Origin: an uncultured Chloroflexia bacterium
Lineage (GTDB): Bacteria; Chloroflexota; Limnocylindria; Limnocylindrales; CSP1-4
Assembly (NCBI GenBank): GCA_963767165.1
Contig: CAVYCV010000008.1
Location: forward strand, 41,978 to 105,977
Length of the DNA stretch: 64,000 nt
Reading direction: 5' to 3'
A program made the position numbers and the translations under genes. Positions 6,492 through 43,585 of the stretch are shown here, piece by piece. The notes under the pieces are model-generated. The model was given only the letters and a program-made list of their open reading frames with translations, was not told the origin of the DNA and did no database searches. Every line of letters begins with the position of its first letter. The stretch's first letter is position 1.

Positions 6492-8981
6492 TCAATGGAC
6501 CTGGACCGTCACGCTCCTCGAGAAGCGGGTGGTGCCGAACTTGCTTCGGGCCGTCACCGTGACCTTGTAGACGCCGGGCTTGACGTACGTGCCCGCGGCC
6601 GTCTTGCCGCTCCAGGTCCAGCGGTACGTGCCGGTCTTGACGGAGCGATTCTTCCAGATCGTCCGGATGAGCGTTCCGGCCCTGTAGATCGCGACATCGA
6701 CCTTCGCCGCGCGCCGGAAGGTGATCACCGCCTGGCTCTTCTGCCGGGCGCGCGGGTCGAAGGAACGATCGGTCCAGCGGACGGCCGCGATCGTCCCGTC
6801 GACGAGGATCGTCCGCCGGACCAGCGTCAGGTTGCCGGCCCGGTCGCGACCCTTGACCTGGAACGTGTACCGGCCGGCCGGGACGAAGACGCCCGCCCGG
6901 GTCCGGCCCGACCAGGCGGTCTTCCAGCTCGTCCGCTTCGAGAACGACCACGATCGGACCGACGTGCCGGCCGAGTTGCGCAGGCGCACGACGCCGGTCA
7001 GCGCCTCGCTCGCCTTCCACGACAGCGGCAGCGTGTCCTGGTGACCGTCGCCGTCGGGTGAGAAGTACCCGCGCGACGCCGCGGTCGTCACCCCGGCCGC
7101 GGTCCGGTCGACGGTCACCGTGAACGCACGCTCCGCCCGGTTGTTCGAGGCGTCCGCCGTCCACAGGGTCAGCCGGTATCGGCCGTCGGCCACGACCGCA
7201 CCGCCCTGGTCGCGCCCGTTCCAGGTGAGTGACGGGGTTCGGCCGGCCTGGCTCCCGGTCCGCACGGCGGCCCCGAGGGTCGCGCCATTGACCCGCTGGA
7301 CGCGGTAGCCCCATGCGGTCAGGCCACTCGCGGTCAATCGCGCCGTGGTCGTCTCGAGCCGGCCGTCGCCGTTGGGCGACACGAGGCCCGACGAGATCGA
7401 GCCACTCTTGATCGTCGGCGGGACCGTGTCGGTGATGAACTTGGCCTCGATCGCCGCGTACAGCTCGGGGCGCGTGCCGTCGTACCCGAGCGCCCAGATC
7501 CCCGAGCCGCGCAGGCCGTACTGGTTCACCAGGTCGTACTTGGCCTTGAGCGCCTTCGCGTCATCGAAGTAGAGCTGGCGCCACGGCTTCACGCAGCCGT
7601 AGGCCGGTGTGCAGTTCTGCCGTCGATAGGCGGTCCAGGCGACGCCGTCGACAGCGTCATAGGACTTGCCGTAGGTGACCCCGAATTCGCGTGCGGTCAC
7701 ATACGGCACCGTGACCGAACCGCCGTACTTCGTGCCCGAGATGTTCTTCGCGTGCACCGACGAGCTCGACGTGGACCAGGCACGACCGTAGTACGGCACG
7801 CCGAGGATGACCTTCGAGGCCGGGATGCGCGCGACGTAGGCCTTCAGGGTGTCCCGGATGTCGTAGGTCGGTCCGCCGATCGGCGCGATCGAGCCGACCG
7901 GGGTCGACGAGGATGACCGGTAGTCGTAGCCCATCACCAGCACAGCATCGGCGCCGCCCTTGGCCGTCGCCGCCTCGATCGGGTAGTTGCCGATCCAGCC
8001 GGTGGTGTCGAAGGTGAGCTGGTAGCCCTTGGCGACGGCCTTGAGCGAGGACCTGACCTTGCGCACGAGCAGCGTGAACTCGTCGGCGTAGCCGGACGCG
8101 ATCGGCTCGAAGTCGAGGTTCACGCCGTCCGCCCCGCGCGCCCGCACGGCCGACGCGATCTGGGTCGCGAGATTGGCCCGCGCTGCCGCGCTGCCGAGCA
8201 GCTTCTTCTGCCGGGCGAGGCCTGTCGCCGTCCAGGCGAAGCTCTGCACGGTCAGCACGACCCGGGCGTGGCTGGCGTGCGCGGCGTTGATGACGCTGGT
8301 CATCCTCGAACTGGTCCAGCCGCTCCAGCCGACCGTCGCCGAGCCGTTGCTGTTCTTCCTGATGAGGTTGCCCTTGCCGTCCGCACCGACCCCGAAGTAG
8401 GCGACGGTCGAGATCTTCTCCCAGTCGAGCGTGGTCGAGCTGTCGCTCAGCTCCCAGTAGGGCAGGAAGCCGAACACCTCGCGCTTGAGCGCACCCGGAT
8501 CGACCGCGGCCGTCAGTTCGAACGTGGGCTGCCCATCGTCGAACGACCAGGTGGCGCCGTCGGCGGCGATGACGGTGGCAGGGTCGACGATCGGCGCGTC
8601 GACGCGCGGGGCGGTCGTGGGGACGAGCGAGGCTGCACCGTTCGGGAGAGCGCGGAGGGCCTTGCCCGAGGCCGATCCCGCGGGGAGAGCCCGTGGGCGG
8701 GCGCCGTCGACCACCCACGGATCGCCTGCCCGAGGGCGGAACGGCACGGTGACCCGCCCGCCTGCCTTGAACGCGATGCGGTCGTTGGCGTGTGCGAGCG
8801 CTTCCTCGTACTGCACGGTCGGGCGGAGCGTCGTGGCGCCGTCGGCCCGGGGTGCGGCGGCGAGGGTCGCGACCGGCAGCAGGCCGGCGCCGAGGACGAG
8901 TGCCAGCGCGGCGGCCATCGGCCGGAGACCGAGGAACGGCGCGGGCGGACGACGAAACAGCATCGGGTGGACGACCCTCAT
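6492..8981 (-). CDS. secreted GH18-like glycosyl hydrolase domain protein with C-terminal FlgD Ig-like repeats
   Basis: Signal peptide. GH18-like core (FGFLPYWE, DGVNLDFEP resembling DGxDxDxE with D->N). Repeated SPDGDG/NGRDQGG FlgD_ig-type modules. Confidence 0.55.
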   Translation of the reverse strand: MRVVHPMLFRRPPAPFLGLRPMAAALALVLGAGLLPVATLAAAPRADGATTLRPTVQYEEALAHANDRIAFKAGGRVTVPFRPRAGDPWVVDGARPRALPAGSASGKALRALPNGAASLVPTTAPRVDAPIVDPATVIAADGATWSFDDGQPTFELTAAVDPGALKREVFGFLPYWELSDSSTTLDWEKISTVAYFGVGADGKGNLIRKNSNGSATVGWSGWTSSRMTSVINAAHASHARVVLTVQSFAWTATGLARQKKLLGSAAARANLATQIASAVRARGADGVNLDFEPIASGYADEFTLLVRKVRSSLKAVAKGYQLTFDTTGWIGNYPIEAATAKGGADAVLVMGYDYRSSSSTPVGSIAPIGGPTYDIRDTLKAYVARIPASKVILGVPYYGRAWSTSSSSVHAKNISGTKYGGSVTVPYVTAREFGVTYGKSYDAVDGVAWTAYRRQNCTPAYGCVKPWRQLYFDDAKALKAKYDLVNQYGLRGSGIWALGYDGTRPELYAAIEAKFITDTVPPTIKSGSISSGLVSPNGDGRLETTTARLTASGLTAWGYRVQRVNGATLGAAVRTGSQAGRTPSLTWNGRDQGGAVVADGRYRLTLWTADASNNRAERAFTVTVDRTAAGVTTAASRGYFSPDGDGHQDTLPLSWKASEALTGVVRLRNSAGTSVRSWSFSKRTSWKTAWSGRTRAGVFVPAGRYTFQVKGRDRAGNLTLVRRTILVDGTIAAVRWTDRSFDPRARQKSQAVITFRRAAKVDVAIYRAGTLIRTIWKNRSVKTGTYRWTWSGKTAAGTYVKPGVYKVTVTARSKFGTTRFSRSVTVQVH

Positions 8982-14195: not shown

Positions 14196-14957
14196 TCAGT
14201 CCGTCGGCCGCTCGACGGGCGCCGCGAGCCGGCCGGCCGCGTCGTCGTCGCGGGCGAGCTCGGCGGCGCGCTGGAGCGAGGCGACGGTGCCCGCGTCCGC
14301 CCAGTGCCCGTCGTAGACGCGGCTGAACAGCCGGCCGCCCGGGACGTAGTGGTTCAGGACGTCGGTGATCTCGAACTCGCCGCGACCGGACGGCGCGAGG
14401 TGCTCGATGACCTCGAACGCATCGGGGCGCAGGAAGTAGACGCCGATCGGGATCAGGTCGCTCTTGGGCGAGGCGGGCTTCTCCTCGAAGCCGATCACCT
14501 GCCCGTTCGCGTCGAGCTCCGCCACGCCGAACCGTTCGGGGTCCGGGACTCGATAGAGCAGGGTGCCCGCGCCGTGCGGGCCCGCGTCGAACTCGGCCGC
14601 CACGTCCGCCAGGTCGCGGCCGCGGAGGATGTTGTCGCCGAGGATGCAGCAGAAGGAGTCGTCCCCGACGAACCGGCGGGCGAGCCCGATCGCATGGGCG
14701 ATGCCCAGCGCGCCCCGCTGGTAGCGATAGGTCAGGTCGAGACCGAAGTGGGACCCGTCGCCGAGCAGCTCCACGACGTCGCCGACGCTCTTGCCGCCCA
14801 CGATCACCATGACCTCGCGGATGCCCATCCCGGCGAGCGTGGCGATGGGGTAGTAGATCATCGGCCGGTCGTAGATCGGCAACAGGTGCTTGTTGGTGAC
14901 GATGGTCAGCGGGAAGAGCCGCGTGGCGGTCCCGCCGGCGAGGACGATGCCCTTCAT
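14196..14957 (-). CDS. rmlA: glucose-1-phosphate thymidylyltransferase
   Basis: MKGIVLAGGTATRLFPLT...KHLLPIYDRPMIYYPI motif. Confidence 0.8.
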   Translation of the reverse strand: MKGIVLAGGTATRLFPLTIVTNKHLLPIYDRPMIYYPIATLAGMGIREVMVIVGGKSVGDVVELLGDGSHFGLDLTYRYQRGALGIAHAIGLARRFVGDDSFCCILGDNILRGRDLADVAAEFDAGPHGAGTLLYRVPDPERFGVAELDANGQVIGFEEKPASPKSDLIPIGVYFLRPDAFEVIEHLAPSGRGEFEITDVLNHYVPGGRLFSRVYDGHWADAGTVASLQRAAELARDDDAAGRLAAPVERPTD

Positions 14958-15012
14958 CGCGCGGAAGCGTAGCAGGGGCGCCCGTGACGGACGCCGCCGC
15001 CGCCCGGCCTCT

Positions 15013-15193
15013 GAGTCGCCCAGCGGCGCTACTGACGAAGGAGGTCACTCTCGACCGTGGTCGGCCGCCTGATCGGTCGCCAGGCGACGTATTCGACGTC
15101 CCGACGCGGGCCCAACCGTGCCTTGGCCGTCGGATCGGTCGCTCAGCGACGAAGCGACGAGCACCTTCGACGGTAGCGTCGCCAAGCGACGAC
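15013..15193. repeat. 181-bp direct repeat copy 1 (contains SD-like GAAGGAGG and three GTCGC-N-GCGAC palindromes)
   Basis: Identical except 1 nt to 15935-16115 (coordinates +/-2). Confidence 0.8.
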
Positions 15194-15249
15194 CAAGAAC
15201 TGGTGCGCCCGGTGAGTGACGGTGAAGTGCGCCGGCCCATCATTGATCG

Positions 15250-15906
15250 ATGGCTACGCGGAACCGCCGACTCGATCGAGCGATGGCGACGTCGCGTCGT
15301 CTTGCGGCTGCGGCGATGTCCGAGATCCGTGATGCTCGGATCGCCAGTGGCCTGAGCCAGCAGGAGGTCGCCAAGGCCCTCGGGATGTCGGCAAGCCAGG
15401 TCGCACGATTCGAACGCGGGGCGTTGAACGATCTCCGACTCGAGCAACTCTGTCGACTCAGTGCCGGTGTCGGACTCGAGCCGAGCCTTCGCTTCTATCC
15501 GGATGGTGATCCCCTCCGAGATGCCGGACAGGTACGGCTCCTAGAGCGGCTCCGATCACGCTGCGCTCCCACCATGCGATGGCGCGTCGAGGTGGCGCTC
15601 GCCGGCCAGAGCGATCTTCGAGCGTGGGATGCGGTGATAGACGGGACCGGCTGCGTCGATGCGATCGAGGCCGAAACGCGGCTGCGCGATCTGCAGGCGG
15701 TGGAGCGCAGACTCGCGCGGAAACTCCGTGACGACGCGACGATCCAGCACCTGATCCTGCTCGTCGCCGACACTCGGTCGAATCGGCGAGCGCTCGCCGA
15801 AGGACGCGACGCGCTTCGGGCCCAGTTCCCACTCGACACTCGCGAGGCCATGGAGAACCTTCATCGCGGAGGATGCCCCGGCGCGAACGCGATCGTCTTC
15901 CTCTAG
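15250..15906 (+). CDS. XRE-family helix-turn-helix transcriptional regulator with C-terminal uncharacterised domain
   Basis: HTH_XRE signature GLSQQEVAKALGMSASQVARFERG. True start may be an internal Met (about 15283 or 15316). Confidence 0.55.
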   Translation: MATRNRRLDRAMATSRRLAAAAMSEIRDARIASGLSQQEVAKALGMSASQVARFERGALNDLRLEQLCRLSAGVGLEPSLRFYPDGDPLRDAGQVRLLERLRSRCAPTMRWRVEVALAGQSDLRAWDAVIDGTGCVDAIEAETRLRDLQAVERRLARKLRDDATIQHLILLVADTRSNRRALAEGRDALRAQFPLDTREAMENLHRGGCPGANAIVFL

Positions 15907-15934
15907 ATCACCAGCGGTGCCGCGGAGGGCGTCC

Positions 15935-16115
15935 GAGTCGCCCAGCGGCGCTATTGACGAAGGAGGTCACTCTCGACCGTGGTCGGCCGCCTGATCGGTC
16001 GCCAGGCGACGTATTCGACGTCCCGACGCGGGCCCAACCGTGCCTTGGCCGTCGGATCGGTCGCTCAGCGACGAAGCGACGAGCACCTTCGACGGTAGCG
16101 TCGCCAAGCGACGAC
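15935..16115. repeat. 181-bp direct repeat copy 2
   Basis: See copy 1. Ends 25 nt from the mreC stop. Confidence 0.8.
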
Positions 16116-16139
16116 ACGGCCGCGGCTACCGGCCGCGGC

Positions 16140-17105
16140 TCACGGCTTGGTCGTCGGCGCGGCCGCCGGCGGCGCCGGGGTCGGCGTGTAGCACGGCTGC
16201 TCGCCGACCGGCAGCGTGTCGCCGGTGCACTCGACCGGCTGCTGCTCGATCGGCGGCAGGCCGCCCTGGTAGTCGAGGATCACGAGGACGTATTCGAGCC
16301 GGTCGAGATCGGCCGTCGGCTGCAGGAAGGCGGTCTGGACGACATCGTTCGCGTCACGGCGGACGTCGACCACCTGGCCGATGAGCAGACCCTTGGGATA
16401 GGGCGAGCGGATGCCGCTCGCGAGGGTGATGCCCGCGGTCAGCACCTCGTCGTTGAGGCCCACCTGCGCACTCGAGTCGATCTGGTTCATCACGAGCACG
16501 CCCCCGAGCTGCCCGACCACCTCGCCGGTCGCGGCATTCGAGGCGATCTGGCCGATGACCGTCGATTCGGCGTCGGTCAGCAGCACGACCGTCGAACTGC
16601 CCGGGCCGATCTCGGTGATGCGCCCCGCCAGCGCGCCACCGGCCGCGATCACCACATCGCCTTCAGCCAGGCCGTCATCGGTGCCCTTGTCGAGGGTGAT
16701 CCGTCGTCGGAACTCGCTCGGCTCGCGACCGATGACAGAAGCCGCCGTCGTCTTGAAGTCGAAGCCGCTCTTCAACTGCAGCAGCGCCGTCAGCTGGTCG
16801 TTCTCGCGTTTGGTCTCCTGGAGGCGCGCGTTCTCGTCGGCGAGGCGCGCGTTCTCGTCGCGGAGGGCCGCGTTGTCGATGCGCAGGCGGTCGATCTCCG
16901 TGATCGCACTGCCGATCGAGGCGATGCCGCCGGCGATCGTGTCGAGCGCGCCCTGGATGGGCCGGAAGGCGAACCCGATCCCGTTCTGCAGTTCGCGGAT
17001 GCCCGGGTTCGACGAGAAGGCCATCATCAGGAGGGTGACCGCAAGGAGCACCATGTAGGCGATCCCGCGGCGGCGGGCGGAGCGGTTGGCGAGCAGCGAG
17101 GTCAT
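16140..17105 (-). CDS. mreC: rod shape-determining protein MreC
   Basis: N-terminal TM helix, coiled coil (ALRDENARLADENARLQETKRENDQL), MreC beta-barrel domain motifs. Follows mreB. Confidence 0.8.
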   Translation of the reverse strand: MTSLLANRSARRRGIAYMVLLAVTLLMMAFSSNPGIRELQNGIGFAFRPIQGALDTIAGGIASIGSAITEIDRLRIDNAALRDENARLADENARLQETKRENDQLTALLQLKSGFDFKTTAASVIGREPSEFRRRITLDKGTDDGLAEGDVVIAAGGALAGRITEIGPGSSTVVLLTDAESTVIGQIASNAATGEVVGQLGGVLVMNQIDSSAQVGLNDEVLTAGITLASGIRSPYPKGLLIGQVVDVRRDANDVVQTAFLQPTADLDRLEYVLVILDYQGGLPPIEQQPVECTGDTLPVGEQPCYTPTPAPPAAAPTTKP

Positions 17106-18183: not shown

Positions 18184-18456
18184 GCTGGGAAGGAGTCCTT
18201 CGTTGATGCGATCGGGGCCACGGCGCGGGCACCGCCGGCGTCCGGGGGCGGGTCGCGCGGGCGGGCGGGAGGCTCGGGCAGTATACGCGCTCGTTCCGGT
18301 CCGGCCGGTCGGGATCAAGTGAGTGGCGCGGCCGTCGTGCCGCTCGGTCGGGCATCGGGCCTCGCAGCGACCGCACGGGTGGGCGCCGGAGCGGGATTTC
18401 CCCAGGACGCGCAGACTCACGGGGCGAACGGGCACGCGCCGGGCCACGCCGAACTC

Positions 18457-19493
18457 ATGACAGGGGCAAGGATCGTGCGCGACCTCGCGACCATCAAAGC
18501 AGTGGGCCGCGTGTCCGGGTGCCTCGCTGTCGCTGCCATCACCGCCGCCCTGTCCTTTGGCGCCTGCGGCACGACGCGCCGACGACGGGCCCTGCCACGA
18601 CCGGCCCGTCGTCGGCGGCCGCGCCCGTGCAGTCTCCGGGCACGCCCTCCCCCGCACTGTCGCCGTCGGCCTCACCGGACGCGCTGGTCATCGACGATCC
18701 GGCCTACCTCGCCGGCGACGCCTTCACGGTGTCGGTCGACCAGGCGGGGACGGATTGGACCGCGCCGTCCGCAGCCCCGGTCATGCCGAACGGCGAACGG
18801 GCCGTGCGCGTCGCCTTCCTGCCCGCCTCATGCGCGACCGGCACCTTCACGATCAGGGCGGACGACGTGCCCGCCGACGCCTGGGAGACCGACCTCCAGG
18901 CGGATGGCGATCGGCACGGCTACGAGTTCATGTCCTGGCCCGCCGCTCAGCCCTCGCAGTGCGCGGACGGGCACGGGGAGGCCTACTTCCGGGTCGCCTA
19001 CCACCCGTTCACGCTCCATGGCGCGATCCACCTGGTGGCTGACATCAGGAACGTCGTCGACGCCCCGAACGCCGTCGAGGTGGTGCCGGTGTTCACGAGC
19101 GCCGACGCCACACAGCCGTCGCTCACGACCGTGGGCTTCTTCGCCCTGGAGCAGGTCCCCGGTCCAGAGAAGCGACGGAGCGCCAAGGCGAAGGAGATGG
19201 CCGCCACGGACTTCGACCGGACCACGCTCCCAGACGGGACGACGCCGACGCATTGGGGCCTCAGGTTGACCGGGTGCGGTCCGATGGGCGCCGAGCCGAT
19301 CTTCATCACCGCACAGATCGGGGACGCCGCACCTGTCGACGTCGGGACATGCTCCGATGGCAGCATCCGGGTCGAAGAGATGTCGTTGCCGCTGGCGGTG
19401 AACGGGACGCGGTTCGCGGTGCTCGTGGCGGGTGGCACGACGAAGTCGCAGGTGCGCGTATCCGAGTTCCAGTTTCGGGGCGACCGCCCCTGA
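18457..19493 (+). pseudogene. secreted/lipoprotein gene of unknown function with apparent -1 frameshift (signal peptide in frame 1, mature domain in frame 0)
   Basis: ATG 18457 encodes MTGARIVRDLATIKAVGRVSGCLAVAAITAALSFGACG (signal/lipobox-like) in one frame. The contiguous Thr/Pro/Gly linker and 300-aa domain continue in the frame of ORF 18519..19493. One missing base near 18575 would fuse them. Confidence 0.45.
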
Positions 19494-19522
19494 CCCTGCA
19501 CCCGTGACGCGGGGCGCATCGC

Positions 19523-20266
19523 TCAGGTCGTCGGTCGCACGGTGGGTGCCGGCCGGTCGAATGCGATGCCGCGATCGCGCATCGAGACGTACGCGTCGTG
19601 GCCGATGACGAGGTGGTCGAGCAGGCTGATATCGAGCAGACGGCCGGCGGCCAGCGCCTCGGCCGTCAGGTGCAGGTCGTCGGGAGAGGGCGTGGGGTCG
19701 CCTGACGGATGGTTGTGGACAAGGATCACGCTCGCGGCGTTGAGCCGGACGGCGTCGCGGAAGAGCTCGCCGACCCGGACGAGCGAGGCGCTGACGTTGC
19801 CCTGGTAGACGGTCGCCACGCGCAGCACGTGGTTCTTCGTGTCGAGCATCACGACGCGCAACTCCTCGCGTTCGAGCCGACCCATCTGCAGGATCAGCCG
19901 GTCCGCGACATCACCGGGGCCGCGGATCGACCAGCGACCCGTCGGCCAGTCCGCCAGCGAGCGTCGGCCGAGCTCGAACGCGGCGACGAGCTGGGCCGCC
20001 CGGGCCTCGCCGATCCCGGCCAGTCCCGCAAGCTCGAGGTCCGTCGCCCGCGCGAGGCCGGCCAGCCCGTCGTAACGGGCGAGGACATCCGCGGCGAGGT
20101 CCACTGCAGAGTGGCCACGCGTGCCGGAACCCCAGACGAGGGCAAGCAGCTCGGCCGCGGTGAGCCCGGCGGCACCCCGGAGGGCCAGTCGCTCGCGCGG
20201 CCGCTCGGTGGCCGGGAGCTCGCGGATCGCACGCCCGCGAACGGTCGTATCGGACGGATCGGCCAC
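19523..20266 (-). CDS. radC: RadC-family JAB/MPN domain protein (UPF0758)
   Basis: N-terminal helix-hairpin-helix region, HNHPSGDPTPSPDDL JAMM-like motif. Confidence 0.85.
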   Translation of the reverse strand: MADPSDTTVRGRAIRELPATERPRERLALRGAAGLTAAELLALVWGSGTRGHSAVDLAADVLARYDGLAGLARATDLELAGLAGIGEARAAQLVAAFELGRRSLADWPTGRWSIRGPGDVADRLILQMGRLEREELRVVMLDTKNHVLRVATVYQGNVSASLVRVGELFRDAVRLNAASVILVHNHPSGDPTPSPDDLHLTAEALAAGRLLDISLLDHLVIGHDAYVSMRDRGIAFDRPAPTVRPTT

Positions 20267-41880: not shown

Positions 41881-43585
41881 ATGGGACGTCGACGCGGTCA
41901 CCTGCCGCTCCCCCGAACCGTGATCCGAGCCGTGCTGGCGGCGTCGGTGGCGGCCGTCCTGGTGCCGGCCATCGCCCTCGCGCATCCGCTCGGCAACTTC
42001 ACGATCAACCACTACGCGGGCGTGCGGGTCGAGCCCGATCGGATCCTGCTCGATGTCGTCATCGACCAGGCCGAGATCCCGACCTTCCAGGCGCGGCTCG
42101 ACCTCGACACCGACGGGGACGGCCAGGTCTCCGACGAGGAGCTCGACACCGGGCGGACGGTCCGCTGCGACGATCTCCGCGGGTCCCTCGACCTGCGCGT
42201 GGGTCAGGTTTCCCAGACCCTGACGCTCACCGAGGCGGGGCTGGCGTTCCCGCCGGGCGCCGGTGGCCTCTCGACGATGCGCGAGGTCTGCGGCTTCCAG
42301 GTGGACCTCGCGGCCCCGCTCAGCAGCGGCGCGAGCGTCACGTTCGCCGACACCTCGTACGCGGAGCGGCTCGGCTGGCGCGAGATCCTCGTCGTCGGCT
42401 CGGGCATGAAGGTCGCGCTGGCCGATGGTGGCGTCCTCGCGACCGCGAGCGTCTCGGAACGGCTGACTGACTATCCGGCCGACATGCTCACGCGGCCGCT
42501 GGCGCAGACCTCGATGTCGGTGGTCGCGACCGTCGGCGGGCCGACGCTGCCGCCATTCGCCATCCCGGACGCGAGCCCGATCGACGGGACCGGGGGCGCC
42601 GGCCCCGTCTCGGCGGCCGTTTCGGATCCCGTGGCGGTGGCCGGTGTCCCCGGCGGTGTCGGGACAGGGGACCTGCCCTCGATCTTCCGCTCAGCGGACC
42701 TGACGCCGGTCGTCCTGCTGGTGTCTCTGCTGACCGCGGCGGGGCTCGGGGCGGGCCATGCCCTGACCCCCGGTCACGGCAAGACGCTGATGGCGGCGTA
42801 TCTCGTCGGGACACGCGGACGTCCCTTGCACGCCCTCGGACTCGGGCTGTCGGTGAGTGTGTCGCACACCGTCGGGATCCTCGTCCTTGCGGCGCTCGTG
42901 CTCGGGGCCCAGGGCGTGCTCGCGCCGGACCTGGTCGTTCGCGCGGCGCCGGTCGTGGCGGCCATCTCGATCGTGGCCATCGGTGGCTGGATGCTGTTCA
43001 GCGAGCTGCGGCGACGGCGGCGACTCGCGGCATCGGCGGCCGCCTCGGCCGGGCATGCGCACACGCACGACGAGCACGAGCACGCGCATGACCATGCGGA
43101 CGAACACGACCACGACCACGCCCATCACGGACATGCACAGGACGCCGACGCGGACCCGCACCCGCACCCGCCCGCACGCCCACCCGCACGAGGAGCCCCC
43201 CGGCGAACACAGTCATGGCGGCGTCCGCCACAGCCATCTCCCCCGTCCGGGCTCGGCGATCACGTGGCGCAGCCTGTTCGTCCTCGGCCTGGCCGGCGGC
43301 CTGATCCCCTCGACGAGCGCACTCCTGATCCTCCTCGGCTCGATCGCCGCCGGCCGGCCGACCTTCGGTTTCGTGCTGGTCGTCGCGTTCGGGGTCGGGA
43401 TGGCGGCCGTGATGTCCGGGGTCGGGCTCGCGATGGTGTTCGCCCGTGGCCGTCTGGAGCGCGTCGGCTCGGGCTCGCCGCTCGGTCGCGTGACCACATA
43501 CGTGCCGCTCGCCGCGGCCGTGCTGGTCTTCACGCTCGGGCTCTACCTCACGGCCCAGGCGGTCGGCGGCGCTCAGACGCTCTAG
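41881..43585 (+). pseudogene. rcnA: Ni/Co efflux transporter (RcnA/NicO family) with N-terminal periplasmic domain; +1 frameshift inside a His-rich (CACCCG)n loop
   Basis: N-terminal signal peptide and HPLGNFTINHY domain, NicO motif HALTPGHGKT, His-rich loop HAHTHDEHEHAHDHADEHDHDHAHHGH. The C-terminal half (HSHGGVRHSHLP...GLAGGLIPSTSALLIL) continues in the +1 frame from about 43171. Confidence 0.6.

Follow-up and report, generated by a model that had tools for sequence, protein, structure and literature searches.

The 64,000 nucleotides of DNA analysed here (contig CAVYCV010000008.1 of an uncultured Chloroflexia bacterium, positions 41,978 to 105,977; G+C 71%; hereafter the window) contain two almost identical 181-bp direct repeats bracketing a lone regulator-like gene between mreC and rmlA, which raises the question of what kind of genetic unit has come to lie there, and at whose service. 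Comparison with related loci reveals a discrete single-gene cassette that is missing from close relatives, the encoded protein of which joins an XRE-type helix-turn-helix (HTH) domain to an uncatalogued domain of predicted PD-(D/E)XK nuclease fold. At slightly better than even confidence, we regard it as a selfish or accessory cassette whose protein would bind the site arrays on either side of its gene, gene conversion keeping these two arrays alike.

On the minus strand of the window, genes are arranged in the order radC (19523-20266), mreB, mreC (16140-17105), rmlA (14196-14957), rmlB, rmlD and rmlC. Between mreC and rmlA, register comparison and repeat finding agree on two direct repeats of 181 bp (15013-15193 and 15935-16115) with one mismatch, just as the original prediction had stated, i.e. 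99.4% identity, and a period of 922 bp; looser limits give 188 bp (15006-15193) at 98% identity. The further claim of three palindromes and an GAAGGAGG element per copy also holds: GAAGGAGG is present in both copies (15038-15045 in the first), and the window's six exact GTCGC-N3-GCGAC sites all fall within the repeats (1.81 expected; six or more in 2 of 100 shuffles), accompanied by a fourth, imperfect palindrome at the start of each copy (GTCGCCCAGCGGC, 15015-15027 in the first). The 741 bp between the repeats contain, as predicted, one convincing open reading frame (ORF), which is located at 15250-15906 on the plus strand and encodes the XRE-HTH protein of 218 aa, and gene calls for the window place the whole unit directly after mreC, with no mreD before rmlA. 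A third copy of the repeat was not found in the window by blastn or nhmmer. The individual features are the following:

15013-15193, plus strand: repeat unit A1, proximal to rmlA and upstream of the cassette gene, with four palindromic sites and 27-bp terminal inverted repeats.
15935-16115, plus strand: repeat unit A2, proximal to mreC and downstream of the gene, equal to A1 except for T at 15954 versus C at 15032.
15015-15041, plus strand: left terminal arm of A1, GTCGCCCAGCGGCGCTACTGACGAAGG, comprising site 1 plus the CTGACGAAG arm (A2 counterpart at 15937-15963).
15164-15190, plus strand: right terminal arm of A1, CCTTCGACGGTAGCGTCGCCAAGCGAC, with site 4, inverted with respect to the left arm (A2 counterpart at 16086-16112).
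15076-15088, no strand: internal palindrome site 2, GTCGCCAGGCGAC (in A2 at 15998-16010).
15138-15150, no strand: internal palindrome site 3, GTCGCTCAGCGAC (in A2 at 16060-16072).
15211-15243, plus strand: promoter-like block GGTGAGT..GGTGAAG..N10..CATCAT, conserved in the family; putative promoter.
15250-15906, plus strand: cassette gene, 218 aa, with the XRE HTH at aa 26-76 and the domain of predicted PD-(D/E)XK fold at aa ~88-218.
14966-14975, minus strand: extended -10-like motif CTGCTACGCT, 8 nt upstream of the rmlA ATG (14957), being the rmlA-side copy that adjoins the cassette; putative promoter.
14976-15012, no strand: cassette-side spacer from A1 to the rmlA promoter-like motif, missing from empty alleles.
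16117-16139, minus strand: decayed resident promoter-like motif GCCGCGGCCGGTAGCCGCGGCCG, directly past the mreC stop codon and now a palindrome with an 8-bp stem.

That these features form a unit of their own can be seen from loci without them. Metagenome contigs were scanned by MreC, a query that neither favours nor disfavours the cassette: about 47 related loci have rmlA immediately after mreC, with a spacer of 25-95 bp, and only four further loci are occupied. Both of the window's closest MreC relatives (loci L175 and L176, at 94% and 92% identity) are empty, the flanking genes of the sister taxon L175 diverging by 8.8% at the nucleotide level. Alignment to L175 and to L094 delimits the insert to window positions ~14976-16126, and the earlier suggestion of a small repeat-flanked cassette is thus borne out by a discrete stretch of ~1.15 kb that close relatives lack. 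A four-gene tree has the topology ((W, L175), (L012, L176), L006, L177), where W is the window, and occupied and empty loci interleave in the MreC tree, with the sister pairs L014/L134 (93.5% at the nucleotide level), L019/L118 and L101/L115; the cassette is dispensable. It did not, however, replace mreD, as had been surmised, because the empty relatives, including those closest to the window, are devoid of this gene as well: in all related loci with both genes rmlA comes after mreC, none of the loci examined has mreD there, gene tables list no MreD family, and the window's candidate membrane ORFs yielded no MreD match in a limited test. In this lineage, mreC is hence normally not followed by mreD. 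Excision by recombination between the repeats, also proposed before, finds no counterpart in the data, since a solo-unit spacer, as the product of such recombination, does not occur among ~50 empty sites; spacers of 300 bp in L173 and L174 do not match the unit model. Four other loci (L112, L114, L127 and L159) carry inserts of 1.1-2.5 kb without a family gene in the same spacer, a site that seems generally permissive for accessory DNA or a hot spot of its insertion.

Within the cassette family, the repeat unit has a consensus of ~176 bp and ends in 27-bp terminal inverted repeats (GTCGC-N3-GCGGCGCAACCGACGAAG ... CTTCGTCGGTAGCGCCGC-N3-GCGAC), positions 1-27 being complementary to positions 150-176 in 70-100% of the units. 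Each unit contains four nnCGC-N3-GCGnn palindromes, two of them internal, with cores ~60, 61 and 39 bp apart and with outer CGTCG/CGACG motifs conserved about one helical turn from each core; complementarity within the sites is 64-100% at positions 2-6 from the centre (the 5-bp core) and random farther out. Iterative nhmmer searches detected unit homologs beside about 40 family loci, distant paralogs included, and in 0.95 Mb of related DNA 97 of the 103 unit matches are located at most 700 bp from a family gene. On these grounds, with no match elsewhere in the window either, the unit is a cis element of the cassette, and the view of it as a dispersed element resembling miniature inverted-repeat transposable elements (MITEs) or repetitive extragenic palindromes (REPs) has to be given up. 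The core CGC-N3-GCG is common to the whole family, while the outer two bases vary by subfamily and track the recognition helix of the HTH, pairing SASQVARFERG with GTCGC, SASAIARFERR with GCCGC, SHAQxGRIERG with AACGC and (S/T)HTQ..RIER with CACGC. Based on this co-variation and on their anatomy, the units are concluded to be putative binding-site arrays for the cassette's own protein. A 39-aa ORF with a GTG start in each repeat (15057-15176 and 15979-16098), 11 nt past GAAGGAGG, was also considered; neither the ORF nor its Shine-Dalgarno sequence is conserved in L012 and L006, and it is probably not a gene.

As to the protein, its HTH (aa 25-81) matches PF01381 (HTH_3; 40.0 bits, cut-off 23) and PF13560 (HTH_31; 37.8 bits, cut-off 27), and an XRE HTH domain match was obtained for 31 of 32 family members. 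Residues 85-218 are covered by no family in Pfam, NCBIfam, PADLOC or PHROGs and have no sequence match in the PDB. AlphaFold modelled the full-length protein with a predicted local distance difference test (pLDDT) score of 83 and the C-terminal domain alone with a pLDDT of 93 and a predicted template modelling score (pTM) of 0.87, the modelled core of the latter being alpha-beta-beta-beta-alpha-beta (helix 8-20, strands 26-32, 41-47 and 53-58, helix 64-77, strand 83-88). Its Foldseek matches in the PDB are nearly all PD-(D/E)XK nucleases, namely McrC, AF1548, VC1899, R2 RLE, OkrAI, PvuRts1I, Bax1, Can2, Hjc and XisH. The family alignment shows no variation at E114 and D127 and almost none at E140 and K158; D127 and E140 fall on the expected strands 2 and 3, Q149, D147 and K158 are conserved nearby, and many charged residues of the domain are invariant. 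The assignment of a PD-(D/E)XK fold, made on the predicted structure, is considered sound. Detectable homologs of the complete protein number 769, nearly all of 218 aa, and an exhaustive search with the C-terminal domain resulted in 828 clusters at 50% identity, almost all of 216-220 aa and of the same architecture. The fusion of an XRE HTH with this uncatalogued domain is a large undescribed family from soil Chloroflexota, specific to Candidatus Limnocylindria, of which no description was found in the full-text literature searched; "XRE regulator" alone is an inadequate label for its genes. Compared with MreC, the cassette protein changes at roughly double the rate.

The arrangement of gene and units is shared by independently assembled Candidatus Limnocylindria metagenome-assembled genomes, derived from both short-read and long-read assemblies; a scan of species genomes assigned the lineage to this class of Chloroflexota. 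Orthologs on long contigs occupy the same slot (DZR-Rce1-radC-mreB-mreC, cassette gene, rmlA-rmlB-rmlD-rmlC), and the closest occupied relatives (L006-L012; 76-78% protein identity) display the same unit-gene-unit order with direct repeats of ~175-183 bp, the two copies of a locus being ~84-96% similar in L012, ~79-86% in L006 and ~80% in L008. L177 likewise has two units with diverged copies. Unit pairs are direct in the window, L006, L008 and L012 and inverted in L001, L013, L014 and L052 (246 bp, 94%), while the orthologous cassettes of L002, L015, L017, L019, L021 and L048 have a unit on one side only. An inversion of the gene together with one unit was considered as the source of direct versus inverted pairs and rejected, the order of the units not fitting. 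Unit copies cluster by genome and not by position, with similarities of 79-95% within genomes versus 59-68% between genomes at the same position, which is read as concerted evolution, most simply by gene conversion; the window's 99.4% pair would then represent the most recently homogenised case. A small circle or collapsed tandem array came into consideration as well, most homologs being found on contigs of 0.9-1.7 kb, near the 922 bp of the period, but the median contig in the collection measures ~1 kb and long contigs carry a single chromosomal cassette.

Some family loci deviate from the simple layout. In some paralogous cassettes, one side carries two to four units in tandem (L087, 3711-4032; L093, 2528-2957), and in L034/L047 a third unit (~460-640) is found at a distance of 2.4 kb, which leaves an alginate-lyase-like gene bracketed by units as well. 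Directly downstream of the cassette gene of L001, before the distal unit, five tandem 32-33-bp repeats (CCCGCCGGACGCGGAACCTGCGCCGTAGCCGA) are present at 6666-6824. The cassette ends of L019 carry 24-bp direct repeats, GTGAGCGCCGGGyGAGmGAyTCAC, each of which is palindromic (GTGAG...CTCAC) and unlike the 176-bp units.

Two or three diverged members occur per genome, with unrelated housekeeping genes on either side. Paralogs of the same genome share at most ~72% protein identity (L034 vs L066), most of them 40-50%. Pairs of at least 74% identity always share their flanks, many pairs of 70-73% do not (L034/L066 of one genome among them), while orthologs in the same slot can be as low as 55-65% identical. 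This combination of differing contexts at 70-73% with shared slots at 55-65% shows that relocation to new sites took place while the class diversified, though not in recent times. Paralog pairs do not delimit the segment that moved, as homology of ~70% covers the ORF only.

The junctions offer a glimpse of how the cassette is placed. In the occupied locus L177, a resident motif, TGA-GGCCCGG-CTGGTACGCT-GGCTCGCG, is intact right past mreC, and rmlA has another copy in front of it, CTGCTACGCT-N9-ATG. The window (16117-16139) and L012 retain decayed relics of the first copy on the mreC side, the window's relic aligning to TGA-GCCCCGG-CTGGTACGCT of the empty L175. Because the motif persists on that side, either intact or as a relic, the cassette of the window clade lies downstream of a resident promoter-like motif, with a second motif copy on the rmlA side. 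Occupied and empty alleles have probably been reassorted since by homologous recombination. Cassettes are found in both orientations, and L014 and L019 differ in insertion point and have opposite orientations. A possible duplication of 5-6 bp, (C)GCGCC, is seen at the junctions of L014 compared to empty L134; no clear target-site duplication was found for the window, L019, L017 or L002.

Most family genes are preceded by the block GTAAGC-N4-5-GGTGAAG-N10-12-(C/G)AT(C/G)AT-N6-7-ATG. Its -10-like hexamer sits only 6 nt before the ATG of the cassette gene, which suggests a leaderless transcript; a scan for consensus promoters and terminators returned nothing. In all mreC-rmlA loci (e.g. L134, L175; 14958-14975 in the window), rmlA is preceded at a distance of 8-9 nt by CTG(C/G)TAC(C/G)CT, empty spacers ending in the conserved CTG(C/G)TAC(C/G)CT-N8-9-ATG; the sequence resembles an extended -10 element, and the rml mRNA is thus probably leaderless too. 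A short upstream ORF (uORF) with a stop codon overlapping the rmlA start occurs in L175, L176, L137, L107, L146 and L001.

How such a cassette might work can be outlined from its parts: a ~176-bp unit, the conserved promoter block, the gene of the 218-aa protein and, often, a second unit downstream of the gene. Via its HTH, the protein would bind the palindromes as dimers or higher oligomers. Unit A1 is positioned between the cassette promoter and the divergent promoter motif of rmlA, from where bound protein would regulate its own gene and probably modulate the rml operon, while the array downstream of the gene would permit looping, as described for lambda CI on OL and OR. Gene conversion would hold both copies near-identical, and units would diverge fast between genomes, together with the recognition helix of the protein. 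The nuclease-fold domain might contribute oligomerisation and/or DNA cleavage serving spread or maintenance of the cassette.

Several observations weigh against this explanation. The structural matches are weak (best E-value 3.9e-3, TM-scores of 0.4-0.5), and the canonical lysine of the (D/E)xK motif is absent, the position two residues after E140 being E or I. Divergence of the cassette protein roughly tracks that of the hosts, which fits vertical descent with loss, and ordinary homologous recombination suffices to reassort presence and absence, with no need for an activity encoded by the element; a 12-codon uORF between motif and rmlA in the empty L175 and L176 is absent from occupied alleles. 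Identical or near-identical copies at different sites were not found, leaving no sign of recent transposition. Since several orthologous cassettes have a single-sided unit, paired arrays are not essential. Tight co-regulation is disfavoured by the variable distance (~45-75 bp) from the rmlA-proximal unit to the promoter motif of rmlA. Finally, the window's exact 218-aa protein is missing from a collection of 15 billion proteins (best homolog 78% identical), although the exact MreC and RmlA of the same 184-kb contig, as deposited at NCBI/ENA, are present; a missed gene call on this contig would account for the gap, or else that assembly differs at the locus.

Among the alternatives, an autonomous DNA transposon or homing-type element fares best, although we hold it to be unlikely. 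The HTH-PD-(D/E)XK protein would then be the sole transposase or endonuclease acting on multi-site termini of ~176 bp, and would cut the cassette out, or cut empty sites, in order to move it. Terminal multi-site units reminiscent of Tn7 or Mu ends and usually inverted (L001, L013, L014, L052) speak for such an element, as do the occurrence of both orientations and at least two insertion points in one spacer of 25-95 bp, the possible duplication in L014, the lack of any unit remnant at empty sites, and the conserved acidic residues of a nuclease fold. The presence of several copies in one genome, each in a different context, and a relocation younger than some host splits would also be accounted for. 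However, paralogs are positionally conserved without near-identical copies at different loci, the window's units are direct instead of inverted and lack a clear target-site duplication, some cassettes have a single unit, and the patchy distribution is equally well explained if alleles were exchanged by homologous recombination. A recognisable transposase of the DDE, HUH, serine or tyrosine type is absent, with Pfam, NCBIfam, PADLOC and PHROGs matching the HTH only, and a transposase consisting of a PD-(D/E)XK enzyme alone has, as far as we know, not been described (TnsA, to our knowledge the only PD-(D/E)XK protein known in transposition, needs TnsB). The bolder proposal of a new class of prokaryotic mobile element, which is moved into intergenic spacers by HTH-nuclease excision or homing and captures the downstream operon by an outward leaderless promoter, is considered equally doubtful.

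Somewhat less probable still is a purely host-serving transcription factor, i.e. a lineage-specific XRE regulator of the rml (dTDP-rhamnose) operon with paralogs elsewhere, for which the units would serve as arrays of operators, while the nuclease-like domain, itself inactive, would mediate oligomerisation or act as a sensor. Such a role would agree with an XRE HTH and palindromic sites phased by one helical turn, with the conserved promoter block downstream of the upstream unit, with the non-conserved position of the catalytic lysine, and with a unit of constant orientation just upstream of the rmlA promoter motif in all occupied loci except L015 and L021. It is at odds with the fact that most related lineages, the closest relative included, possess the same rml operon without the gene, while paralogs reside beside functionally unrelated genes in either orientation and sometimes between convergent genes. 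Evolution at about twice the rate of the neighbours and the many invariant charged residues of the C-terminal domain are likewise hard to reconcile with it.

Very improbable is that the units encode a structured RNA (small RNA, leader or terminator) instead of protein-binding DNA. While the plus strand of the unit folds into a closed rod (-96.5 kcal/mol, z = -3.5) in which the terminal arms pair together, the other strand reaches z = -1.8 only, and Rfam covariance models gave no match at E <= 1 in 14800-16300. Moreover, each unit sequence is self-complementary only across its 5-bp cores and 27-nt terminal arms, the interior being random, primary-sequence motifs are conserved at helical-turn spacing, units exist in either orientation relative to every neighbouring gene, and the cassette gene is apparently leaderless. 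The least credible alternative, a recent local duplication (the partial tandem duplication of the original prediction) or an assembly artefact that would make the second copy new or spurious intergenic sequence, has in its favour the near-identity of the copies, the lack of further units in the window and the fact that assembly graphs may be traversed wrongly at repeats exceeding the usual k-mers, but it fails as the origin of the layout because the same unit-gene-unit order with diverged copies recurs in independent short- and long-read assemblies (L006-L011, L008, L012, L177), the single mismatch falls within the repeat, and similarity within genomes is graded from 79% to 99%, as episodic gene conversion predicts.

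Two further peculiarities were noticed in the neighbourhood. An insert of 1.2 kb is present between radC and mreB (18310-19535), where L006 and L012 have only 48-60 bp; it contains an ORF of 324 aa on the plus strand (18519-19493; G+C fraction at third codon positions 0.89) with no match in Pfam or PHROGs and no homolog in any fetched locus. In mreC, a tandem duplication of 21 bp at 16821-16862 (two copies of GAGGCGCGCGTTCTCGTCGGC with 90% identity) gives the coiled coil a repeated ENARLAD heptad.

If the selfish or accessory cassette is the correct explanation, an abundant uncultured class of soil bacteria would carry a large family (the 828 clusters given above) of self-contained cassettes, in each of which a DNA-binding protein of nuclease fold is matched by rapidly evolving arrays of the sites that it binds. 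Hundreds of natural protein/operator specificity pairs would thereby become available for studying HTH-site co-evolution, together with a candidate mechanism of transposition or homing by a PD-(D/E)XK enzyme alone, and with a documented case in which an insert follows a putative resident promoter, the motif of which recurs beside a cell-wall sugar operon.

Known systems resemble the cassette in part only. With McrC, Hjc, OkrAI/BamHI-like enzymes and XisH, it shares the core fold and the placement of D127 and E140 on strands 2 and 3, and its E-x-E arrangement is one that we take to recall BamHI and OkrAI, while sequence similarity is not detectable, TM-scores are ~0.4-0.5 and the motif lysine is off its canonical place. 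RAYT/REP (REPIN) systems also combine a vertically inherited, single-copy-like gene with co-evolving flanking palindromic repeats, but RAYTs are HUH Y1 transposases and REPs are dispersed in tens to hundreds per genome, whereas the cassette units are confined to the flanks of the gene. Free-standing homing endonuclease genes (phage seg/mob; I-Ssp6803I, a PD-(D/E)XK enzyme) are similarly lone nuclease-fold genes between conserved genes, present or cleanly absent among close relatives and fast-evolving; unlike the cassette, they have no flanking arrays of their own binding sites, and known families of homing enzymes do not resemble the cassette protein in sequence. Tn7, Mu and composite transposons likewise possess terminal segments of ~150-200 bp with several sites (here putative) for their own protein, inverted or direct flanking units, and presence/absence polymorphism in both orientations, from which the cassette differs in lacking a DDE, HUH, serine or tyrosine recombinase, identical copies and a clear target-site duplication, and in sometimes having a unit on one side only. 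In the case of lambda CI with OL and OR, the C-terminal domain is S24-peptidase-like instead of PD-(D/E)XK-like and a prophage surrounds the gene, while the cassette is inserted by itself among housekeeping genes and its array is a 176-bp unit with 27-bp terminal inverted repeats of its own. In both, however, a two-domain protein with an XRE/Cro-C1-type HTH is encoded between two multi-site palindromic arrays ~1 kb apart, with divergent promoters nearby, and because of this lambda-like HTH protein and its bracketing arrays, looping and autoregulation are the natural analogy for the way in which the cassette may operate.

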